This document shows positions 8,320 to 37,700 of a stretch of DNA of 37,793 bases, piece after piece. Where the stretch lies: UHGV virus genome UHGV-0272092; one strand, given 5' to 3'. Both the position numbers and the translations under genes were made by a program. The first letter of the stretch is position 1. The number at the start of each line of letters is the position of its first letter. Origin of the DNA: a virus. Under the pieces are notes generated by a model. That model did not search any database and was not told where the DNA came from. It saw only the letters and a list, made by a program, of their open reading frames with translations.

Positions 8320-8348
8320 GATAGAAAGGATGTAAATACGAATAGATA

Positions 8349-8363
8349 TTACCTTTCAGGTAA
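8349..8363. promoter_or_regulatory. operator-like palindrome TTACCTTTCAGGTAA
   Basis: Perfect 15-bp palindrome, identical to the copy at 24967-24981. Confidence 0.55.
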
Positions 8364-24925: not shown

Positions 24926-24966
24926 ATTTATTTATCGTAGGTAGTTGACATTTAACGCACAAATTA

Positions 24967-24981
24967 TTACCTTTCAGGTAA
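24967..24981. promoter_or_regulatory. operator-like palindrome TTACCTTTCAGGTAA
   Basis: Identical to the copy at 8349-8363. Confidence 0.55.
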
Positions 24982-25916: not shown

Positions 25917-25928
25917 CGTGACATGTCA
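25917..25928. promoter_or_regulatory. 12-bp palindrome GTGACATGTCAC (copy 2 of 3)
   Basis: Exact repeat of 8722-8733 and 28183-28194. Confidence 0.5.
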
Positions 25929-26003
25929 CAAACAGACAGCCTATGAGCTGGCTTTGTTTTATCCTCACCAGAGGATATCAACGACATTATCCCCACCAGC
26001 GGA

Positions 26004-28141: not shown

Positions 28142-28182
28142 AGTATTCAAAACCCATCAAATTCATCATGCATAATCTACTC

Positions 28183-28194
28183 GTGACATGTCAC
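28183..28194. promoter_or_regulatory. 12-bp palindrome GTGACATGTCAC (copy 3 of 3), overlapping the stop of the 28191-28538 gene
   Basis: Exact repeat. Confidence 0.5.
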
Positions 28195-28538
28195 ACTATT
28201 AATTTCGTTTCATGCCAGCCTTTAGTCACCCAGCATTGCGAGTCACCATTACACGGGCATGAATTAACTGGAACTCTCTCGCCGCACTTACCGCAACATT
28301 TTCTGCTGATCGATTTTATACGCCCGCGCACGCGTGCATCATCCTGGCGGATCAGTAACGCGATGTACTCGGCCATTTCATAGGGATCGCGACCAGGGCG
28401 CCGGGCGGCGCAGTTCCGCGCCAGCATTTCCTGCTCCTGCTTATCCAGCACCAGTTCAATTTTGCGCTCACCGGCGGCGGACTGCCGAGCGCGCTGCGCG
28501 GCTTTGCGTTCTGCGGGGGATTTAGCCACGAATCGCAC
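28191..28538 (-). CDS. Cys-rich small protein (about 111-115 aa), candidate late-gene regulator
   Basis: C-terminal Cys cluster CCGKCG...CPCNGDSQC; last gene before the terminase-proximal terminator. Track start is GTG; a second GTG with RBS GGAG is at 28526. Confidence 0.45.
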   Translation of the reverse strand: MRFVAKSPAERKAAQRARQSAAGERKIELVLDKQEQEMLARNCAARRPGRDPYEMAEYIALLIRQDDARVRGRIKSISRKCCGKCGERVPVNSCPCNGDSQCWVTKGWHETKLIV

Positions 28539-28644
28539 TCCACGCCAGATTGATTAATGACTCCCAGGTAATATAAACCCGGATACCAGCAGCCAGGCCG
28601 AAACCAATCACCATGGCATAAAGCAGAGCGTTGCACTTGTTCAT
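28522..28644 (-). CDS. small hydrophobic protein (40 aa, single TM)
   Basis: RBS AGGAGG 8 nt upstream of ATG 28644; ATGA overlap with the DUF551 gene stop. Confidence 0.4.
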   Translation of the reverse strand: MNKCNALLYAMVIGFGLAAGIRVYITWESLINLAWSAIRG

Positions 28645-29651
28645 CACTTCACCTCCTGCGGCGGTTCTGGTAGCGGCATCCAGAACAAGGCGTTCCCTAA
28701 CCACGATAAAGTGCCGTCGCTCAACTCCACGTATTCCCCTTGTACCTGTCCTGCCATATACTCGCCGTGCTTTGAATAAATTAAAATCCAATCATCTTGA
28801 GGGGGCATTCGCTCACTACAGCTTATCCAACCATCCGGAGTCACCGGAAGCGAGAACGGCAGCACATCTCTGTGAACAAGTTTTTGCTGTGACAGGTTAT
28901 CCAGAACTTTCTGTACTGCTGCATCACCGAATACACCAAGCGCATCTGCCATAACTCCTACAACCTGATAAGCCTCAGCGCATACCGTGGATAAACCATC
29001 CGGAATATCCGGATAGTTGCCTGCCAGTCTACGCAAAACAGCCTTAACAGCCTCAATACGGTCATCATCGTAACTTTCCGCCGTATCTATGCGGTCGAGC
29101 ATGATGATTGCGTTATCAATATCAGGATTGCCGGTCCACTCATTACCGCGATTGGATTCGGCAGCCTGGTTGCCGCGTACTGGTTGATTGTCGGCTTTAC
29201 CCAGTCTGTCGTCGCTGCATGAATGCCCTTCCAGCCAGGCCAATGCTTGTCGCATGAAATACGCAATATGTTTGCCGTGGTAATCGTCTTCATCGATGTG
29301 AAAAGCGATACTACGAATGTATTCAATTGCGTTTTCAATGGCCTCTAACGCTATCGGCGCTGGCGGAGTGGTATATAGTTTTCGACATTTGTATATCCAA
29401 CCGGCATGGTCAGGCGTGTCTGTAAAACGCAAATCGTCTTCGTAGCACTCACGACTACGTTCTTTCCATTCCGTCCACGGAACACCGCTATTCCAGGTGG
29501 GGCGAGTGCAGGACTGATACAGAACAGGCTCTGCTTCCAGCGATGCCAGAGCAATTTCATAAGCCAGGCGCTCAATATTGTCTCGCACGTCCAGGCTGCC
29601 GATTCGCTCTCTGATTTCTTTAATCAGTTCTTTGTCGGTAAAAGTTGTCAT
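28644..29651 (-). CDS. DUF551-domain protein (335 aa)
   Basis: C-terminal segment DDWILIYSKHGEYMAG...LFWMPLPEPP matches my recollection of DUF551. Confidence 0.55.
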   Translation of the reverse strand: MTTFTDKELIKEIRERIGSLDVRDNIERLAYEIALASLEAEPVLYQSCTRPTWNSGVPWTEWKERSRECYEDDLRFTDTPDHAGWIYKCRKLYTTPPAPIALEAIENAIEYIRSIAFHIDEDDYHGKHIAYFMRQALAWLEGHSCSDDRLGKADNQPVRGNQAAESNRGNEWTGNPDIDNAIIMLDRIDTAESYDDDRIEAVKAVLRRLAGNYPDIPDGLSTVCAEAYQVVGVMADALGVFGDAAVQKVLDNLSQQKLVHRDVLPFSLPVTPDGWISCSERMPPQDDWILIYSKHGEYMAGQVQGEYVELSDGTLSWLGNALFWMPLPEPPQEVK

Positions 29652-29661
29652 GTGTTAGTCC

Positions 29662-29925
29662 TTATCCTGCTGTGCTTTCAACTGATGAGGGGAACAAAAT
29701 CTTTTCATCAAACCCTGCATTCATATCATGAACAGCAACACACCAATCCATTGACGAACGATTATCAAGAGCCTCCATGATTTCATCCATGCGGCGCAGG
29801 TCATACAGGTAAATGCTTTTATCGCCAATGGTGTAAAAACCAATTTTTTTCGGTGATGGGCAGCGATCAAGAACGTCCTGTAATTCATTCAACCATGCCC
29901 GTTCTTTTTTTGTTAAAGTTGCCAT
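29662..29925 (-). CDS. hypothetical protein (87 aa)
   Basis: ATG preceded by AAGGAGAG within the conserved junction cassette. Confidence 0.45.
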   Translation of the reverse strand: MATLTKKERAWLNELQDVLDRCPSPKKIGFYTIGDKSIYLYDLRRMDEIMEALDNRSSMDWCVAVHDMNAGFDEKILFPSSVESTAG

Positions 29926-29926
29926 A

Positions 29927-30418
29927 TCACTCTCCTTTGATGCGAATGCCAGTGGTACTCATTCTCCTGATTTCCCAGAGCACACGAGGAACACCACCGT
30001 TTCCGACCGGATCGCGTTTACTCCGCAGGGCGACGCTTGATTCCGCCCAGCTTTTTCTTGGAGGAAGCTCTTTCACACGAACAAAACCAGCTGCGCGAAG
30101 AGATGCTCCTGATTCATCTGCCCGGGTGTACGTAATACAACGTTGATAACCCATAGCTTTTGCTGCCCGCCAGACAGCACCATAAAGCGCGCTGTTAGCG
30201 TTGCGTTCTCCTGTGGTACATGTGCGATTTACTTCAAGCGTTAATCCATCGTCCAAATGTCGTGCAACAGGTCGACCGGCTGTCGCCACACCTATCAATT
30301 CTCCGGCATCATTTCTCAGACCAATGCTGAATTTATGCCCCACCGGGGGTTTATTGTGTCGGTGATGTCTGGATATAAATGCCTTCGCAACACGAAGAGT
30401 AACCGGTGAAATCTGCAC
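29927..30418 (-). CDS. GNAT-like fold protein (putative N-acyltransferase), about 163 aa
   Basis: Pattern IGVATAGRP ... NANSALYGAVWRAAKAMGY ... ASLRAAGF is consistent with a GNAT-type fold. Start set at GTG 30418 (AAGGAG 7 nt upstream); track start is TTG 30457. Confidence 0.4.
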   Translation of the reverse strand: MQISPVTLRVAKAFISRHHRHNKPPVGHKFSIGLRNDAGELIGVATAGRPVARHLDDGLTLEVNRTCTTGERNANSALYGAVWRAAKAMGYQRCITYTRADESGASLRAAGFVRVKELPPRKSWAESSVALRSKRDPVGNGGVPRVLWEIRRMSTTGIRIKGE

Positions 30419-30420
30419 TC

Positions 30421-31149
30421 TCACTCTCCTTTGATACCAATGTTTACAGTCTGGCAAGCTTCTCTGAGCACCCAGTCAATAGCGTCTTTCCATGCTCCGG
30501 TTTCGACTGACGGATTTTCACGCTTAACCTGTTCATAGAAGCGCACTGCTTTAACCAGTCCTTCCGGTACTACTGGCGATGGCTGTTTAGCTTCTAAATC
30601 AGCAATTCTGTCAACCACGGCATCGACAGCATCTGAAAAGCCGAACCAGTTACTCCACTCCGGTCTGTCCCCGGTTGCTGCAAAGTACATATCAGCTAAA
30701 GCAGACTCAGCATGGTCACGCTCATTGATGAGTTGCTCTTCGCTTTTCTCCAGTTCAGCAATACGATTACTTCCATCCGAGATAACACCTTCGTAATACT
30801 CACGCTGCTCGTTGAGTTTTGATTTTGTCTCCTCAAGCTCAACACGCAGCTTCCCTACCGTTAGCGCAATATCCTCGTTCTCCTGGTCGCGGCGTTTGAT
30901 GTATTGCTGGTTTCTTTCCCGTTCATCCAGCAGTGCAAGCACGGTAGCCGGATTAGCCTTGGCAACAAAATCCCGGACTGGCTTACAATCAATCTCCGCA
31001 ATGGGTTGATACGATGTGTAGCCATGCTGTCTTGTATAACTACCGTGACGAATAACGAAAAAATCACCATTTATTTTTTTAGCCTGCCACTTATCTTCAC
31101 CGGCTTTCTCTGCCGCTTCACGCAGTGCATGATAGTTAATTTTGTTCAC
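30421..31149 (-). CDS. Ead/Ea22-like protein (242 aa)
   Basis: Coiled-coil central region and overall resemblance to Ea22-like early proteins of lambdoid phages, from memory. Confidence 0.45.
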   Translation of the reverse strand: MNKINYHALREAAEKAGEDKWQAKKINGDFFVIRHGSYTRQHGYTSYQPIAEIDCKPVRDFVAKANPATVLALLDERERNQQYIKRRDQENEDIALTVGKLRVELEETKSKLNEQREYYEGVISDGSNRIAELEKSEEQLINERDHAESALADMYFAATGDRPEWSNWFGFSDAVDAVVDRIADLEAKQPSPVVPEGLVKAVRFYEQVKRENPSVETGAWKDAIDWVLREACQTVNIGIKGE

Positions 31150-31751
31150 TGGTTGCCTCCTTTGCGAAGCTCTGCGGCAAAGTCAACTAACCACTCGGTC
31201 ATTTCAACCTTCCCTACCAGGTCTGAACCAGGAAACATACAGCAATCACTCTGCGCCGCTTTGAAATCCTTATACTCATATTCCTGAGCCACCAGATTTT
31301 TTGCAGCTTCTATAACAGCATCCACCCCCTGCGCCCGTACTTCAGCCAGGAAAGCGTCGGTGGCTTGGGTTTCGATATCGTTAATTTCAGGAAGAATCTC
31401 TTCCCATGTAGCGATATCGCCATTCAAATGCCATCCGGCAATTCCACTGGAGTTATCCGCAACACTGCGAACGGCTTCAATAGTTTCATGCATTGCCGCA
31501 TTCTCCGCTGCCAGCGCCGAAAACTTCTCGTGTGCCAACTTAACAGCCGCATCAGCCTGCTTAATTGACTCAATCGCTTTCTGCTGGTCTTCGGCCAGCG
31601 CATTAGCACGCACCAGTTGCACTTCCAGTTGCGTTGCCAAATCGCTGATCAGCTTTGCCACACTGCGCATATCAACGGCACCACATTCTGCTTTCAGTTC
31701 CGAAGCCATCTCATGCCCGGCGGCAACTAACCCTTTGATATTACTTTCCAT
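31146..31751 (-). CDS. Ead/Ea22-like protein (201 aa)
   Basis: Ala/Glu-rich coiled-coil protein, 4-nt overlap with the downstream gene. Confidence 0.4.
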   Translation of the reverse strand: MESNIKGLVAAGHEMASELKAECGAVDMRSVAKLISDLATQLEVQLVRANALAEDQQKAIESIKQADAAVKLAHEKFSALAAENAAMHETIEAVRSVADNSSGIAGWHLNGDIATWEEILPEINDIETQATDAFLAEVRAQGVDAVIEAAKNLVAQEYEYKDFKAAQSDCCMFPGSDLVGKVEMTEWLVDFAAELRKGGNQ

Positions 31752-31812
31752 CTTTACCCTCGCTTATCCACATAACTTATTGATTACATTGATAACTAAA
31801 AAGATCGTCGAT

Positions 31813-32157
31813 TCAGAACTCTTCGATGTTCCAGCCACCACCTGCTTTCTTTGGTTTAACCGTTACCCCGATGATTCGGAACGGATACTGATCTGCGGCG
31901 ACTTTGGTTTTCACCCTGGCGTCGTCGGTCCAGAAACCTTTCACTTCGTGCAGTTCCATCTCTCCGGTGGCGAGCATCACAGCGAAATCGGGCGTATAGA
32001 ACGTGTTGTCAGCTAACCGCAGCTTGATACCCTCGAATCGATACCAGGCGATTTCCCCTGCACGTTTACGCTGCTCAAGGTGCTGGCAATACGCAGATTC
32101 TGTTTTGTTCATCTGGCCTGTTTTGAGTCGACCAAGAGCCTGTATCTGTTTTCTCAT
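31813..32157 (-). CDS. DUF1064-family protein (putative nuclease-fold protein)
   Basis: 114 aa; resemblance to DUF1064 proteins found next to phage replication genes. Start codon lies 3 nt from an operator-like palindrome. Confidence 0.45.
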   Translation of the reverse strand: MRKQIQALGRLKTGQMNKTESAYCQHLEQRKRAGEIAWYRFEGIKLRLADNTFYTPDFAVMLATGEMELHEVKGFWTDDARVKTKVAADQYPFRIIGVTVKPKKAGGGWNIEEF

Positions 32158-32160
32158 GAT

Positions 32161-32237
32161 TTACCTCTAAGGTAATTGAAAACCATATAAGACACGAAAT
32201 CAATAGAGTTTAGAATATTTTGTTACCTTGTAGGTAA
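32161..32237. promoter_or_regulatory. pair of operator-like palindromes TTACCTCTAAGGTAA (32161-32175) and TTACCTTGTAGGTAA (32223-32237)
   Basis: Two perfect-armed palindromes 62 bp apart between P and the DUF1064 gene. Confidence 0.55.
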
Positions 32238-32274
32238 TTGTTGAGGCGTAAAAAAATGCGCTATCGCGCTGGTA

Positions 32275-33051
32275 TTACTTGATAAATCCTGCCGCCTTTC
32301 CCCGCCTGTATTCCTCCATCAGCCACTGCGCCGGTGTTATTCCCCCAAGGGTGGCGGCGTTAGGCATGCACCCGAAACTTCGCCCTGGTGGATGGTAAAC
32401 GTCTCTCCCTGTGTCCGGAGGTGTACTCATGGGCTCTGGCTTTGCCTGTATGCTGATCACCGGATCGGGTATCTGCTGTCCGGAAGCCACCTTTTTCGCC
32501 CAATCATCGAGCAGCCTGCGCGCGTGTTTCTCAACCTCACTCTCGCTAAGCTGGCGCTGATACATTGCACGACGGGTATCACATACGACCCAGTACATAA
32601 CCGGATGCCGCCACGGGAATCTTTCGGGACCACCAGGATATAAACTTTTTTCCTTGCTGTACCGGTGAAACTCCGCCATCACATCGTCAATGGTGACGCC
32701 AAGAACCATCTTGCTGTCTTTGCACCACTTGATGAATTGCCCTGGCGACGGCCAGAACGGAGATTCACTGGCGCGGGCGTGGCGCATACCAGCGTTAACC
32801 TGTTCCATTGTAGTGATCCCATTCTCCAGAAACGCAAGCATCCATTGCTTACGGAATTCATTAAGTTTGTTCTGCTCCCTTATGGTCGAAACGCTTGCAG
32901 GAAATGCAGCCTGTAACTGGACAAATAGTTCATTGAAAATTCTAGCAACCTGCTCCTTTTTGCCATTGCTGTCACGCCGCTCTTCATGCACAGCAACACC
33001 ATGCTCACGTAAGCGATCGTACTCATTGAGAAGTTCTGGAGTTGATTTCAT
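32275..33051 (-). CDS. replication protein P (lambda P-like helicase loader)
   Basis: Segment FPASVSTIREQNKLNEFRKQWMLAFLENGITTMEQVNAGMRHARASESPFWPSPGQF closely matches lambda P as I recall it. Confidence 0.8.
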   Translation of the reverse strand: MKSTPELLNEYDRLREHGVAVHEERRDSNGKKEQVARIFNELFVQLQAAFPASVSTIREQNKLNEFRKQWMLAFLENGITTMEQVNAGMRHARASESPFWPSPGQFIKWCKDSKMVLGVTIDDVMAEFHRYSKEKSLYPGGPERFPWRHPVMYWVVCDTRRAMYQRQLSESEVEKHARRLLDDWAKKVASGQQIPDPVISIQAKPEPMSTPPDTGRDVYHPPGRSFGCMPNAATLGGITPAQWLMEEYRRGKAAGFIK

Positions 33052-33853
33052 CCCACACCCCTTCTATCCAGTCAGTGTTATTCCAGTCAAGCTCATCGCT
33101 TTTCCCGGCATTTTTTGATTTTCCCCTGATATGATTTACGTGCCTGGCGAATTTTTGTTCCCACTGAACCTGCGTGAACACTTTGCCCTCAGCCATCCAG
33201 TAATCCCGGAATGCAGCAAGTTCAGCAGGTGTAAATTCCGGTTCCGGCAGGGCCGTTCCCCACAGCGCAGCACGCCGCCGAAAATCTGGCGACGGTAGCC
33301 AGCCATCTGTCATCGGAAATTTCCCGATGGGTTCACTCAGGCCATCCAGAAATTCAGGTTCTGCCACCTGCAACGGCGTACTGTTCGCTTCACTGGTCGG
33401 AGCACCCTCGCGCACGTGCGCTATGTGTGGGGTTTTATATATATCTTCCTCTTCCTCTTCCTCTGGTAACTCCTTTTGTAACGCTGTTGGCGTTACTTTT
33501 TGCGTTACTCGTTTTCTATGCTCTGCCACTCTTCTATTCGTAAGTGCACGTTTTTTCGATGATTCTCCATTATGTCGCTCAAAGTTTGGAAGAATTAGTT
33601 TGCCGTCATGATAAGCAAGCCATCCGACGCTAATGAGGGCGTCAGCAAATCCTGTAATAAAAGCGAGTCTATCAAGTACTCCTTTTGTAACGCTGCCAGC
33701 GTTACCGTCTATTGTTTGCTGGTCAGCCCATGCCCATATACGAACCAGCTTTCCAAGAACAGCATCTGGATCAATACCCAGAATTTCTGCTATCTGAAAA
33801 ATTTCAGGTTTATCAGGAGTGATAACTTCAACCTTAATCCAGCTGCTTGCCAT
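33023..33853 (-). CDS. replication initiation protein (O-like replisome organiser)
   Basis: Position immediately upstream of P with overlap; start set at MASSW (RBS GAGGGG). Confidence 0.55.
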   Translation of the reverse strand: MASSWIKVEVITPDKPEIFQIAEILGIDPDAVLGKLVRIWAWADQQTIDGNAGSVTKGVLDRLAFITGFADALISVGWLAYHDGKLILPNFERHNGESSKKRALTNRRVAEHRKRVTQKVTPTALQKELPEEEEEEDIYKTPHIAHVREGAPTSEANSTPLQVAEPEFLDGLSEPIGKFPMTDGWLPSPDFRRRAALWGTALPEPEFTPAELAAFRDYWMAEGKVFTQVQWEQKFARHVNHIRGKSKNAGKSDELDWNNTDWIEGVWDEINSRTSQ

Positions 33854-35472: not shown

Positions 35473-35772
35473 ATGAACGTTAATCAGCAGAAAAATCTTC
35501 AAAAAATCATGCTGGCATTCGACAAGGACTACCGCCTGTCAGAACAGCTATATGACCGACAAGTTGAACTGATTGAGAGCATCCGACTTCATCAACTGTC
35601 CTCAACTTTCGACGTTGTAACAGGCAAAGGCGTTCGTCAGGAAGTGCTGGAGGCTGCTAAAGACAGCCCTGAGTTCGAAGAACTGATGGATGCCTACCGG
35701 CGCGAGGCAATGGCAATTATAGCGCGCTGGGATCTGGCGGATCAGCTTGATGGGCAGAGGGACGCGGCATGA
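35473..35772 (+). CDS. hypothetical early protein (99 aa)
   Basis: RBS GGGAGGG 7 nt upstream of ATG 35473; ATGA overlap with the exonuclease start. Track ORF opens at 35458. Confidence 0.5.
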   Translation: MNVNQQKNLQKIMLAFDKDYRLSEQLYDRQVELIESIRLHQLSSTFDVVTGKGVRQEVLEAAKDSPEFEELMDAYRREAMAIIARWDLADQLDGQRDAA

Positions 35773-36668
35773 TGCGGAACGCTGGAATCATGGATAGAAC
35801 AAAATACATCGGAGGAAGCGATGTTGCAGGGATTCTTGGAATTAGCCCATGGCGCACCCCGCTTGAGGTTTATCTGGATAAGGTCCAGCCACGTGTCAAA
35901 CCAGTAGACCCAAGCAAGCAGAAAGTTTTCACGCGTGGCCAGCGTATGGAGCCATACGTAATAGACCTGCTTTCTGAGGAAACAGGGATGGAAATCGTTC
36001 ATCGCGGAAACCGCTATATCCACCGTGATTACGATTTTATTGCAGCTGAGATCGATGCAGAAGCAGCGTCAGGCGAGAACATTGAGATCAAAACAGTTAG
36101 TCCGTTCAAAGCCAAAGAATGGGGAGAAATCCAGACAGATGCAATTCCTGTGCATTACACGGCCCAGGCCATGCACGGGTTGATGGTTACAAACAAACAG
36201 GTATGCGTTTTCGGTGTGCTTATCGGTGGCGACGACTTCCGAATCTATCGGGTTGAGCGTGATGAAGAAACTATCCAGGCGATCTTAGAAAAAGAAATCG
36301 CTTTCTGGGACCGAGTGAAAAATCTTAACCCGCCGGAAGCTACCAGCGTAAGCGATGTATCGCTGATGTTTGAGAAAGATGCCGGGACAAGTATCGAGGC
36401 TGACGGAAAGGCACTCGCACTATTCAACGATCTACGAGACATGAAATCACGCAGAAAATCACTGGAAGAAGAAATAGCTATATCAGAAGAGAAGCTGAAG
36501 ATGTACATGCAAGAGCACTCAGTCCTGACCCTGGACGGAAAGCCGCTCTGCACATGGAAATCTCAGATCAGCAACAGATTCGACCAGAAGCTATTCCAGT
36601 CAGTACACCCTGAGTTATTCGAAAAATTCAAAACAACAACGACACAACGCGTCTTCAGAATGAAGTAA
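35769..36668 (+). CDS. YqaJ-type recombination exonuclease
   Basis: N-terminal IGGSDVAGILGISPW motif typical of YqaJ/lambda-exo-like nucleases; paired with RecT downstream. Confidence 0.75.
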   Translation: MMRNAGIMDRTKYIGGSDVAGILGISPWRTPLEVYLDKVQPRVKPVDPSKQKVFTRGQRMEPYVIDLLSEETGMEIVHRGNRYIHRDYDFIAAEIDAEAASGENIEIKTVSPFKAKEWGEIQTDAIPVHYTAQAMHGLMVTNKQVCVFGVLIGGDDFRIYRVERDEETIQAILEKEIAFWDRVKNLNPPEATSVSDVSLMFEKDAGTSIEADGKALALFNDLRDMKSRRKSLEEEIAISEEKLKMYMQEHSVLTLDGKPLCTWKSQISNRFDQKLFQSVHPELFEKFKTTTTQRVFRMK

Positions 36669-36677
36669 GGAGAAAAA

Positions 36678-37700
36678 ATGTCTATCAATGCACTTAAGGC
36701 AGCGGCTACCGGTAACCAAGTTGCACATCATAATGAGAAACCAACAACTCTGGCCGGACTTCTGGCAGACCCAAAAATTAAAGCTCAGATGGCTTTGGCA
36801 CTTCCAAAGCACATGACAGCAGACCGTCTGGCGCGCATAGCAACCACAGAGATCAGAAAGGTTCCAAAACTTGCATCATGCGACCAAGCCAGCTTCCTGG
36901 GGGCAATTATGCAATGTGCCCAATTGGGTCTTGAACCAGGCGGAGCTCTTGGACACGCTTACCTGATACCGTTCGACAAACGCCAGAAAGTAAATGGAAG
37001 ATGGGAAACCGTATCTACAGAAGCACAGCTGATTATCGGCTATCGCGGAATGATTGACCTTGCCCGCCGCTCTGGGCAGATCCTGAGTATCTCGGCTCGT
37101 ACCGTACATACAAACGACAAATTCAGCTACTCATACGGCCTGGAAGAAACGCTCGAGCATTTACCTTGCGAAACAGGTGACCGCGGAGAATTAACGCACG
37201 TTTACGCCGTTGCACGACTGAAAGATGGCGGAGTCCAATTTGAAGTTATGAGCCGGGCAGACGTTGAGAAAGTTCGTGCACTGAGCAAAGCCGGTAGCAG
37301 TGGCCCATGGGTTGATCACTTCGATGAGATGGCTAAAAAAACAGTAATTCGCCGACTGTTCAAATATCTTCCTGTTTCTATTGAAATGCAGAAGGCTGTT
37401 GTTATGGATGAGCGCGCTGAAGCTGGACTTAGCCAAGATAACGCAGCTGTTATCACTGGTGAATATTCCGTAGTTGACGATGAGCGTCAACACCTGTCGC
37501 CAATTTCAGATTCAGAACGAGAAGAAGCTCGAGAATATATCATCGCGATACTTAATAGCCTGGATCCATCTGCTGAAGATGCAAAAACGATGTTCAAGCG
37601 CGCTGAAAATGAAATTAACACCATGGCTGAAAAGCTCGGTGATGAATATCACCAAAAATTCATGATGACGCTTAACGATATGCGTCCAGAATTCGAGTAA
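36678..37700 (+). CDS. recT: RecT-family single-strand annealing protein
   Basis: 340 aa; segments LIPF...IIGYRGMIDLARRSG characteristic of RecT, from memory. Confidence 0.8.
   Translation: MSINALKAAATGNQVAHHNEKPTTLAGLLADPKIKAQMALALPKHMTADRLARIATTEIRKVPKLASCDQASFLGAIMQCAQLGLEPGGALGHAYLIPFDKRQKVNGRWETVSTEAQLIIGYRGMIDLARRSGQILSISARTVHTNDKFSYSYGLEETLEHLPCETGDRGELTHVYAVARLKDGGVQFEVMSRADVEKVRALSKAGSSGPWVDHFDEMAKKTVIRRLFKYLPVSIEMQKAVVMDERAEAGLSQDNAAVITGEYSVVDDERQHLSPISDSEREEAREYIIAILNSLDPSAEDAKTMFKRAENEINTMAEKLGDEYHQKFMMTLNDMRPEFE

Follow-up and report, generated by a model that had tools for sequence, protein, structure and literature searches.

A conserved junction sequence at gene boundaries in the ea region of enterobacterial temperate phages is a likely homology patch for the exchange of whole genes

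Phage mosaicism has long been debated as the outcome either of homologous exchange at boundary sequences or of illegitimate recombination followed by selection, and clear boundary sequences are considered rare. As part of the modular theory of lambdoid phages, Susskind and Botstein reportedly proposed in 1978 that short conserved boundary sequences are foci of homologous exchange, and Clark et al. are said to have reported evidence for boundary sequences in coliphage HK620 in 2001. Later papers cite boundary sequences as the exception and not the rule (PMC3233612, PMC3029335). Homologies that are short or diverged are substrates of the annealing proteins Red-beta, RecT and Erf (De Paepe et al, 2014; PMC3945230), and RecT-type proteins promote such exchanges between phage and prophage (PMC3945230). 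In the present study, the 37,793-nucleotide stretch of the virus genome UHGV-0272092 (the window, that is, the whole stretch analysed) was examined for a 15-bp sequence, TCACTCTCCTTTGAT, found at two consecutive gene boundaries of its ea (early accessory) region. Comparison with other phages made it likely that this 15-mer forms the centre of a conserved boundary sequence between genes in the ea region of enterobacterial temperate phages, and that it acts as a homology patch for whole-gene exchange.

Like the sequences attributed to Susskind and Botstein and to Clark et al., the junction sequence, or cassette, is short, conserved and situated at gene boundaries with unrelated flanks in many module combinations; it is likewise a proposed focus of homologous recombination and occurs in the same enterobacterial lambdoid/P22-like group. 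Unlike intergenic boundary sequences, the cassette in the window combines coding sequence, stop codon and ribosome-binding site in one element, and it extends beyond the lambdoid phages to phiV10-like, P1/P7-like and P2-like (parM-carrying) prophages. The window phage resembles the system of De Paepe et al (2014) in encoding RecT together with a YqaJ exonuclease, whereas that study concerned exchanges of lambda with defective prophages over homologies from ~100 bp up to kilobases, and the homologies described here are 24-37 bp (PMC3945230). Mosaic ea22 genes with unrelated C-terminal domains have been described (PMC10834534), and the Ea22 proteins of lambda, 933W, phi24B and P27 were found to end in K/R-G-E (“+GE”), the significance of which was called unknown (Dydecka et al, 2020; PMC7093339). 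This “+GE” is the same feature as the cassette tail seen at the protein level; as compared with that paper (PMC7093339), the end was found here also on non-Ea22 proteins and within a longer conserved DNA junction.

When the whole window was searched, TCACTCTCCTTTGAT was present exactly at two places, 29927-29941 and 30421-30435, and allowing up to two mismatches revealed no third copy; with three mismatches, two unrelated sites matched. All the genes of this region lie on the minus strand, on which the 15-mer reads ATC AAA GGA GAG TGA. Copy 1 (30421..30442, core 30421-30435, minus strand) is the variant AAC ATT GGT ATC AAA GGA GAG TGA, also present in relatives, and ends the 242-amino acid Ead/Ea22-like open reading frame (ORF; 31149..30421) with NIGIKGE and a stop; it is followed by a GTG start at 30412 with a spacer of 7 nt after AAGGAG and the stop-start spelling TGA-ga-GTG. 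Copy 2 (29927..29950, minus strand) carries the canonical 24-mer GGCATTCGCATCAAAGGAGAGTGA (GIRIKGE and stop) and ends the 161-amino acid Mom-like ORF (30412..29927) with TGIRIKGE, the ATG of an 87-amino acid ORF following at 29925 with a 6-nt spacer and the spelling TGA-t-ATG, in which the stop is 1 nt from the ATG. The start codons at both junctions are those in the RefSeq annotation of the same genes in Escherichia coli UTI89. At both copies AAGGAG complements the 3′ end of 16S rRNA within 5-9 nt of the start, as defined for a Shine-Dalgarno sequence, and the stop codon lies within a few nucleotides of the next start, which is the geometry of translational coupling. Thus, the original prediction of an identical 15-bp cassette at two consecutive gene boundaries, encoding IKGE, a stop and the AAGGAG of the next gene at a spacing of 6-7 nt, was borne out at both places. 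The exact repeat is real, and the conserved junction is in fact longer than the predicted 15-bp unit, at ~24-37 nt; the two copies in the window are alike over 22 nt with 2 mismatches (20/22 identical; CATTnGnATCAAAGGAGAGTGA). The statistics of the bare repeat are weak (~4 independent exact repeats ≥15 bp in the window against ~0.9 repeated 15-mers expected from shuffles), and what rises above chance is the register with the gene ends and the comparative data rather than the repeat itself.

The 15-mer was scanned for in IMG/VR, where it was found in at least 120 loci, with 127 copies among the matches listed, to which the following counts refer. The 15-mer ended an in-frame ORF of at least 80 codons in 122/127 copies, a start codon with an ORF came 0-5 nt after it in 114/127, and the spacer from AAGGAG to the start was 6 nt in 103 of these 114 junctions. 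The stop-start spelling was mostly TGAtATG or TGAgATG; other spellings, TGAcGTG among them, were rarer. In other phages the conserved block exceeds 15 nt, GGCATTCGC standing directly before the 15-mer in 89/127 copies, and the usual tails are AAGIRIKGE, ATGIRIKGE, VAGIRIKGE and LAGIRIKGE, the NIGIKGE of copy 1 being less common. The canonical form CGCGCCGCTGGCATTCGCATCAAAGGAGAGTGAtATG reads CGC GCC GCT GGC ATT CGC ATC AAA GGA GAG TGA t ATG. The canonical 37-mer CGCGCCGCTGGCATTCGCATCAAAGGAGAGTGATATG was present in 176 phage records, including lambda, P7, Stx1 and Stx2 phages, phiV10 and Salmonella phage SE10; the lambda copy closes ea22 (29847..30395), with no gene directly after. A junction of 24-37 bp is shared by lambda, Stx, P22-like, P1-like and phiV10-like phages, and the cassette's neighbours differ by phage, being terminase here, int/xis in lambda and parM in P2-like prophages. 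The original prediction had proposed that the 15-mer be sought at gene boundaries of related phages, and it was found there in at least 120 viral contigs.

The tail was mostly found on Ead/Ea22 proteins with many unrelated C-terminal domains, and also on the Mom-like protein, an HNH_3/AP2 endonuclease and three proteins without an Ea22 domain; in the main, the cassette is the conserved 3′ terminus of genes of the ea22 family. Among relatives of the genus Uetakevirus, it ends the Ea22-like gene in each and the next gene differs: it encodes 171 amino acids in EC.W1-9 and 63 amino acids in both ZX5 and PAS61, and is p49 in phiV10, where the cassette is the variant AAGIRIKGGE with stop and TAATG. 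About 6 of the 127 copies occur, also at a gene end, in clearly unrelated phages (loci L004, L018, L047, L057, L066 and L075), and these are chance or convergent. A scan of GTDB genomes with the canonical 24-mer, the end of lambda ea22, gave 38 matches (L202-L239), mostly on low-coverage contigs of ~1 kb or ~48.4-48.5 kb and assigned to Streptomyces, Bacillus, Prevotella, Streptococcus, Shewanella, Pseudomonas and others. These matches were rejected as evidence of host range, the simplest reading of the implausible hosts, contig sizes and low coverage being that most are contamination with lambda control DNA; the matches that look genuine come from Escherichia, Shimwellia and Phytobacter only.

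Whether the genes at the copies vary was the other question raised with the original prediction, and they do. When the 300-nt flanks of 119 junctions were clustered, the upstream sides formed 23 gene clusters and the downstream sides 31, in 66 combinations, one upstream type being paired with 11 downstream types and one downstream gene with 7 upstream types. Between junctions with different partners, homology typically reaches no further than 7-21 nt before the 15-mer and 4-5 nt after it (~25-40 nt in total), and it occasionally reaches 16-23 nt into a recurrent gene start, M-T-T-I-T-K-E. The hallmarks of a boundary sequence were therefore found together, that is, nucleotide conservation between non-homologous flanks, position at the gene boundary and reassorted modules. 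The ea accessory region as a whole is strongly mosaic, as a megablast search with 28600-32200 returned 537 phage records and none covering 80% of the query. In a histogram of local BLAST breakpoints, alignment ends were ~4-fold enriched near cassettes, among loci chosen by the cassette or the Mom-like gene; owing to this choice of loci, and to stronger joints elsewhere, the enrichment carries little weight.

The Mom-like gene between the two copies was followed in 80 loci gathered by protein similarity, independently of the 15-mer. Homologues of at least 92% identity all end in EIRRMSTTGIRIKGE and a stop with the canonical cassette; at least 9 different genes come after them, and at least 6 different junction contexts before them. 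Among the homologues of 80-87% identity, most have no tail and end in VLWEIRRMK, RGV or RAV, with an ATGA overlap, and three others have lineage-specific tails (RRAAGIKWEAE and RSAAGIKVEVK). Because distant homologues have no tail or other tails, the cassette tail appears to be foreign to the Mom-like family and grafted onto it, apparently more than once. The earlier claim that the shared IKGE end is owed to the cassette was upheld by these tail-less proteins. A second cassette type, GCTGGCATCAAGGAGGAGTCTGAGTGATGG, encoding AAGIKEESE and a stop, turned up at 16 loci, always upstream of Mom-like genes, and was rejected as a general adaptor on that account.

The presence or absence of the Mom-like gene was monitored in 5426 complete E. 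coli genomes by using an artificial junction made of the Ea22-type C-terminal module, one cassette and the 87-amino acid gene. This gene-less junction was matched over at least 80% in up to 334/5426 genomes, a number that includes a few split matches still spanning the Mom-like gene, and many of the matches were a single contiguous 363-nt piece. The 909-bp arrangement with the Mom-like gene was found in 83/5426. The prophages of E. coli O104:H4 and UTI89 were collinear (parM, partition gene and onwards to portal) save for a 494-bp Mom-like segment, a unit that consists of the Mom-like gene and one cassette copy. The alignment pieces of the two prophages overlap by exactly 22 nt, which are the cassette, and the breakpoint is therefore inside it; such an overlap is the signature expected of an insertion or deletion through the repeat. 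In this respect the arrangement is like that of integron cassettes and morons, where single accessory genes are gained or lost as units between repeats in an operon. Unlike integron attC, the cassette shows no hairpin beyond shuffled controls and no dyad symmetry. Unlike morons, the Mom-like gene abuts its neighbours (1-8 nt) and lacks a promoter or terminator of its own, as no minus-strand promoter-like site was found in 28500-32300 and the sole minus-strand terminator-like match there lies within coding sequence; the identity of a moron was rejected on these grounds.

These observations can be brought together in a three-step scheme. The cassette supplies the upstream gene, usually of the ea22 family, with its last codons R-A-A-G-I-R-I-K-G-E and the stop, as can be read from the sequence itself. 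The strong AAGGAG embedded in it, a consensus Shine-Dalgarno sequence at the optimal spacing of 6 nt before the start and with the stop 1 nt from the ATG, would then ensure translation of the downstream gene, whichever gene that is, and this translation is probably coupled to that of the upstream gene. Finally, the same 24-37 bp, being present in many phages, would serve as a homology patch at which a crossover, made by RecT, Red-beta, Erf or RecA, exchanges, adds or removes entire genes and each time restores an intact gene end and ribosome-binding site. In the window, the Mom-like gene would have taken the same tail and so become a 494-bp module between two copies that can be lost or transferred. 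Conservation between unrelated flanks, combinatorial reassortment, the grafted tail and presence or absence with the breakpoint in the cassette were seen directly. Because the junctions are uniform to the nucleotide over the 66 combinations and the alignment pieces overlap by 22 nt, we infer that the exchanges took place by homologous crossover in the cassette, and the enzymes named as catalysing them have the same standing. At 24-37 bp, the identity block agrees in length with the shortest segments reported to be paired efficiently by Red-beta (23-27 bp) and RecA (31-34 bp) (PMC3945230), and the RecT/YqaJ pair of the window is a plausible catalyst of short-homology exchange. The predicted signature of modular exchange by short-homology recombination is thus supported by comparative data, from which the recombination itself is inferred.

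Several points weigh against exchange through the cassette as the sole account. The two copies in the window share just 15 exact nt (22 with 2 mismatches), and because this identity is below the minimal pairing segment, direct recombination between them would be inefficient; each copy has longer identity with the cassettes of other phages. In the breakpoint histogram, made on the selected loci mentioned above, alignment ends pile up more at 28804-28848, 29637-29667 and 30942-30959 than at the cassette, which on this evidence appears as one mosaic joint of several here and not the dominant one. The comparative pattern could also come partly from illegitimate joins selected for an intact ribosome-binding site. 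In its full form, this explanation makes the junction a remnant and not a substrate: recombination is illegitimate, and only products with intact last codons and ribosome-binding site survive (a selection filter of the Hendrix type). We consider it unlikely. It would agree with the varied length of homology retained upstream of the 15-mer (0, 2, 7, 9, 11-12 or 17-21 nt), with the region's other joints, which fall within genes, and with the fact that most phage mosaic joints are without boundary sequences (PMC3233612, PMC3029335). However, illegitimate joins would mix spacings, whereas the 66 combinations are uniform to the nucleotide with the 6-nt spacer in 103/114; moreover, the alignment pieces at the Mom-like indel overlap by exactly the cassette, and the cassette length matches the minimal pairing segment of phage recombinases. 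A selection filter may have acted in some events, without explaining the uniformity of the junctions. The proposal that protein selection maintains the “+GE” end of Ea22 proteins for its function as a C-terminal peptide, the DNA identity being a by-product, was found quite doubtful. K/R-G-E does end all Ea22 proteins examined (PMC7093339), and distant lineages keep A-G-I/V...G-E with synonymous changes (GCT/GCG/GCA, ATT/ATC/ATA); their upstream genes end in A-G-I/V-x-I/V-x-G-E with differing nucleotides, which hints at a possible peptide or ribosome-binding-site constraint beyond DNA identity and is a further point against the homology patch as the whole explanation. The nuclear magnetic resonance paper on Ea22 makes no statement on the order of the last 7 residues. 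A peptide function does not account for the tail on unrelated proteins (Mom-like, HNH endonuclease, proteins without an Ea22 domain), and tail-less Mom-like homologues seem to function in other lineages. Furthermore, the non-synonymous tail variants G to D, R to G, R to C and I to T are tolerated, the second cassette type encodes AAGIKEESE, and one locus (L024) keeps the 15-mer behind a 10-codon ORF, where it is a ribosome-binding site only. The nucleotides are near-identical across unrelated genes, third codon positions included, and GGA is practically fixed: with the upstream half of the cassette kept and synonymous Ile, Lys and Glu codons allowed, a non-GGA glycine codon was found at 1 locus against more than 120 canonical ones. 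There is evidence in this codon usage, in the tolerated tail variants and in L024 that the constraint acts on the nucleotides, and not on the peptide alone.

That the cassette is a dedicated cis-element, whether as a structured RNA, as a processing signal or as a site on which a site-specific recombinase or a homing endonuclease acts, was judged very improbable. An HNH_3/AP2 endonuclease gene with the tail does lie inside ea22 remains at one locus, and the lambda region adjoins int/xis; against this, the gene neighbours are quite different (terminase, int/xis, parM) and inverted-repeat symmetry is absent from the cassette. RNA folding of both copies with their flanks and of the canonical 37-mer gave nothing beyond shuffled controls (z -0.35, +0.36 and +0.76), and an Rfam search up to E 1 gave no match for the cassette; a structured RNA or known RNA family was rejected on the folding scores and the Rfam result. 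That AAGGAG and TGA arose independently at both junctions, with the other six bases matching by accident, is barely conceivable. The window does have several further exact repeats ≥15 bp, and the ~6/127 copies at gene ends of unrelated phages mean that convergence does occur at low frequency. The similarity, however, exceeds the 15-mer (20/22 nt in the window, 24-37 nt in relatives), and both copies recur exactly in many related phages, where the gene context is the same. Chance was refuted by the comparative data, namely the position at gene ends, the 66 combinations, the 37-mer in 176 records and the grafted tail.

A second conserved junction lies at the 5′ end of the Ea22-like gene (31139..31166, minus strand). 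It consists of CGCAAAGGAGGCAACCAGTGAACAAAAT, encodes RKGGNQ and a stop at the end of the preceding gene, and has its TGA overlapping the GTG start; its general form is CGCAAAGGAGGCAACCAGTGA(A/G)CAA. In relatives it stands behind at least 8 different upstream sequences, and ea22-type genes would therefore be bracketed by boundary sequences on both sides. At locus L120 (~1063-1608, reverse-complement strand), the ORF of an HNH_3/AP2-type endonuclease that ends in the cassette tail GVAGIRIKGE is preceded by this conserved ea22 5′ junction and the first ea22 codons (VSNIDKQA...), and it looks as if the endonuclease has replaced the ea22 body with both junctions kept. On the downstream side, many unrelated genes after the cassette were observed to start with M-(T/A/S)-T-(I/L/F)-T-(K/D/R)-(K/E)-E, with the consensus ATGACCACTATAACCAAAGAA (loci L001-L120); the examples in the window are MATLTKKE of the 87-amino acid gene (29902-29925, minus strand) and MTTFTDKE of the DUF551 gene (29628-29651, minus strand). 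The linker may thus include the initial 7-8 codons of the gene that follows. One could go further and regard the ea region as an expression array of the plug-and-play type, similar to an integron but lacking an integrase, with RKGGNQ-stop/GTG as the 5′ adaptor and (R)AAGIRIKGE-stop/ATG as the 3′ adaptor, the next gene often starting M-T-T-I-T-K-E; this extension seems improbable to us. In such an array, the adaptors would be selected because RecT, Red-beta or Erf can install accessory genes, such as those for a Mom-like enzyme or an HNH endonuclease, in an expression-ready state, and free-standing HNH endonucleases might speed the installation by cutting at or near an adaptor.

The window is that of a temperate phage similar to phiV10 and epsilon15 (Uetakevirus). 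Its minus-strand genes follow in the order DnaT-like and lambda-P-like replication genes, DUF1064, a 201-amino acid EaE-like gene, the Ead/Ea22-like gene, the Mom-like gene, the 87-amino acid gene, a 335-amino acid DUF551 gene, a regulator and the small and large terminase genes. Of the two proteins named in the original prediction, the Ea22-like one (30421..31149, minus strand) was confirmed by Pfam PF13935 (E 8.6e-33, 114.3 bits against a cut-off of 27), and the one called GNAT-like (29927..30412, minus strand) was narrowed to a probable Mom-like DNA-modification protein, as its residues 1-126 matched phrog_1384, “Mom-like DNA modification protein”, with E 6e-41. Against Pfam Mom PF25680 it scored 20.9 bits (E 3e-4), under the cut-off of 27.1, and RefSeq names it “XF1762 family protein”. 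The gene is a variable accessory gene that is common in E. coli prophages. The Ead/Ea22-like protein consists of an N-terminal Ead_Ea22 domain, a portable 45-amino acid C-terminal module (GLVKAVRFYEQ...NIGIKGE) and the cassette tail, and elsewhere the same module is joined to unrelated N-terminal parts. The 87-amino acid gene (29662..29925, minus strand; MATLTKKE..., phrog_1714) is one of at least 10 different genes found directly after the cassette in relatives. On the plus strand, a YqaJ-like exonuclease (35769-36668; PF09588, E 2.7e-23) and a RecT-family single-strand annealing protein (36678-37700; PF03837, E 4.4e-57) together form a RecET-type recombination module (35769..37700), divergent from the replication/ea operon.

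Other repeats were also noticed in the window. An 18-bp exact direct repeat, ACTCCTTTTGTAACGCTG, occurs inside the DnaT-like initiator gene at 33469-33486 and 33678-33695, 209 bp apart, and is adjoined by a GAA/GAG-rich run at 33444-33464; these repeats might be origin iterons, as in lambda O. A 14-bp near-palindrome, CGTGACATGTCACA, was found twice, at 25917-25930 and 28182-28195, one copy being just before the small-terminase start beside the phrog_536 regulator gene and the other past the 3′ end of the large-terminase gene, and it may serve as an operator or have another regulatory role. In the late region, 17 bp are repeated exactly and in direct orientation (TATTACCTTTCAGGTAA) at 8347-8363 and 24965-24981, 16.6 kb apart.

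The junction described here is a clean example of a mechanism already proposed, and its principle would not surprise a specialist. As a case it is unusually clean and abundant, with hundreds of copies, dozens of flanking combinations, lambda itself included and a natural presence/absence polymorphism, and with it the boundary-sequence model becomes directly testable on a sequence of 24-37 bp. The “+GE” end of Ea22 would be explained as AAA-GGA-GAG, the Shine-Dalgarno sequence of the next gene in translation, and a simple explanation is thereby offered, in which the ribosome-binding site of one gene is read as protein at the end of another. Conserved C-terminal peptides in phage operons should accordingly be treated with caution, as they may be nucleic-acid signals and not protein motifs.

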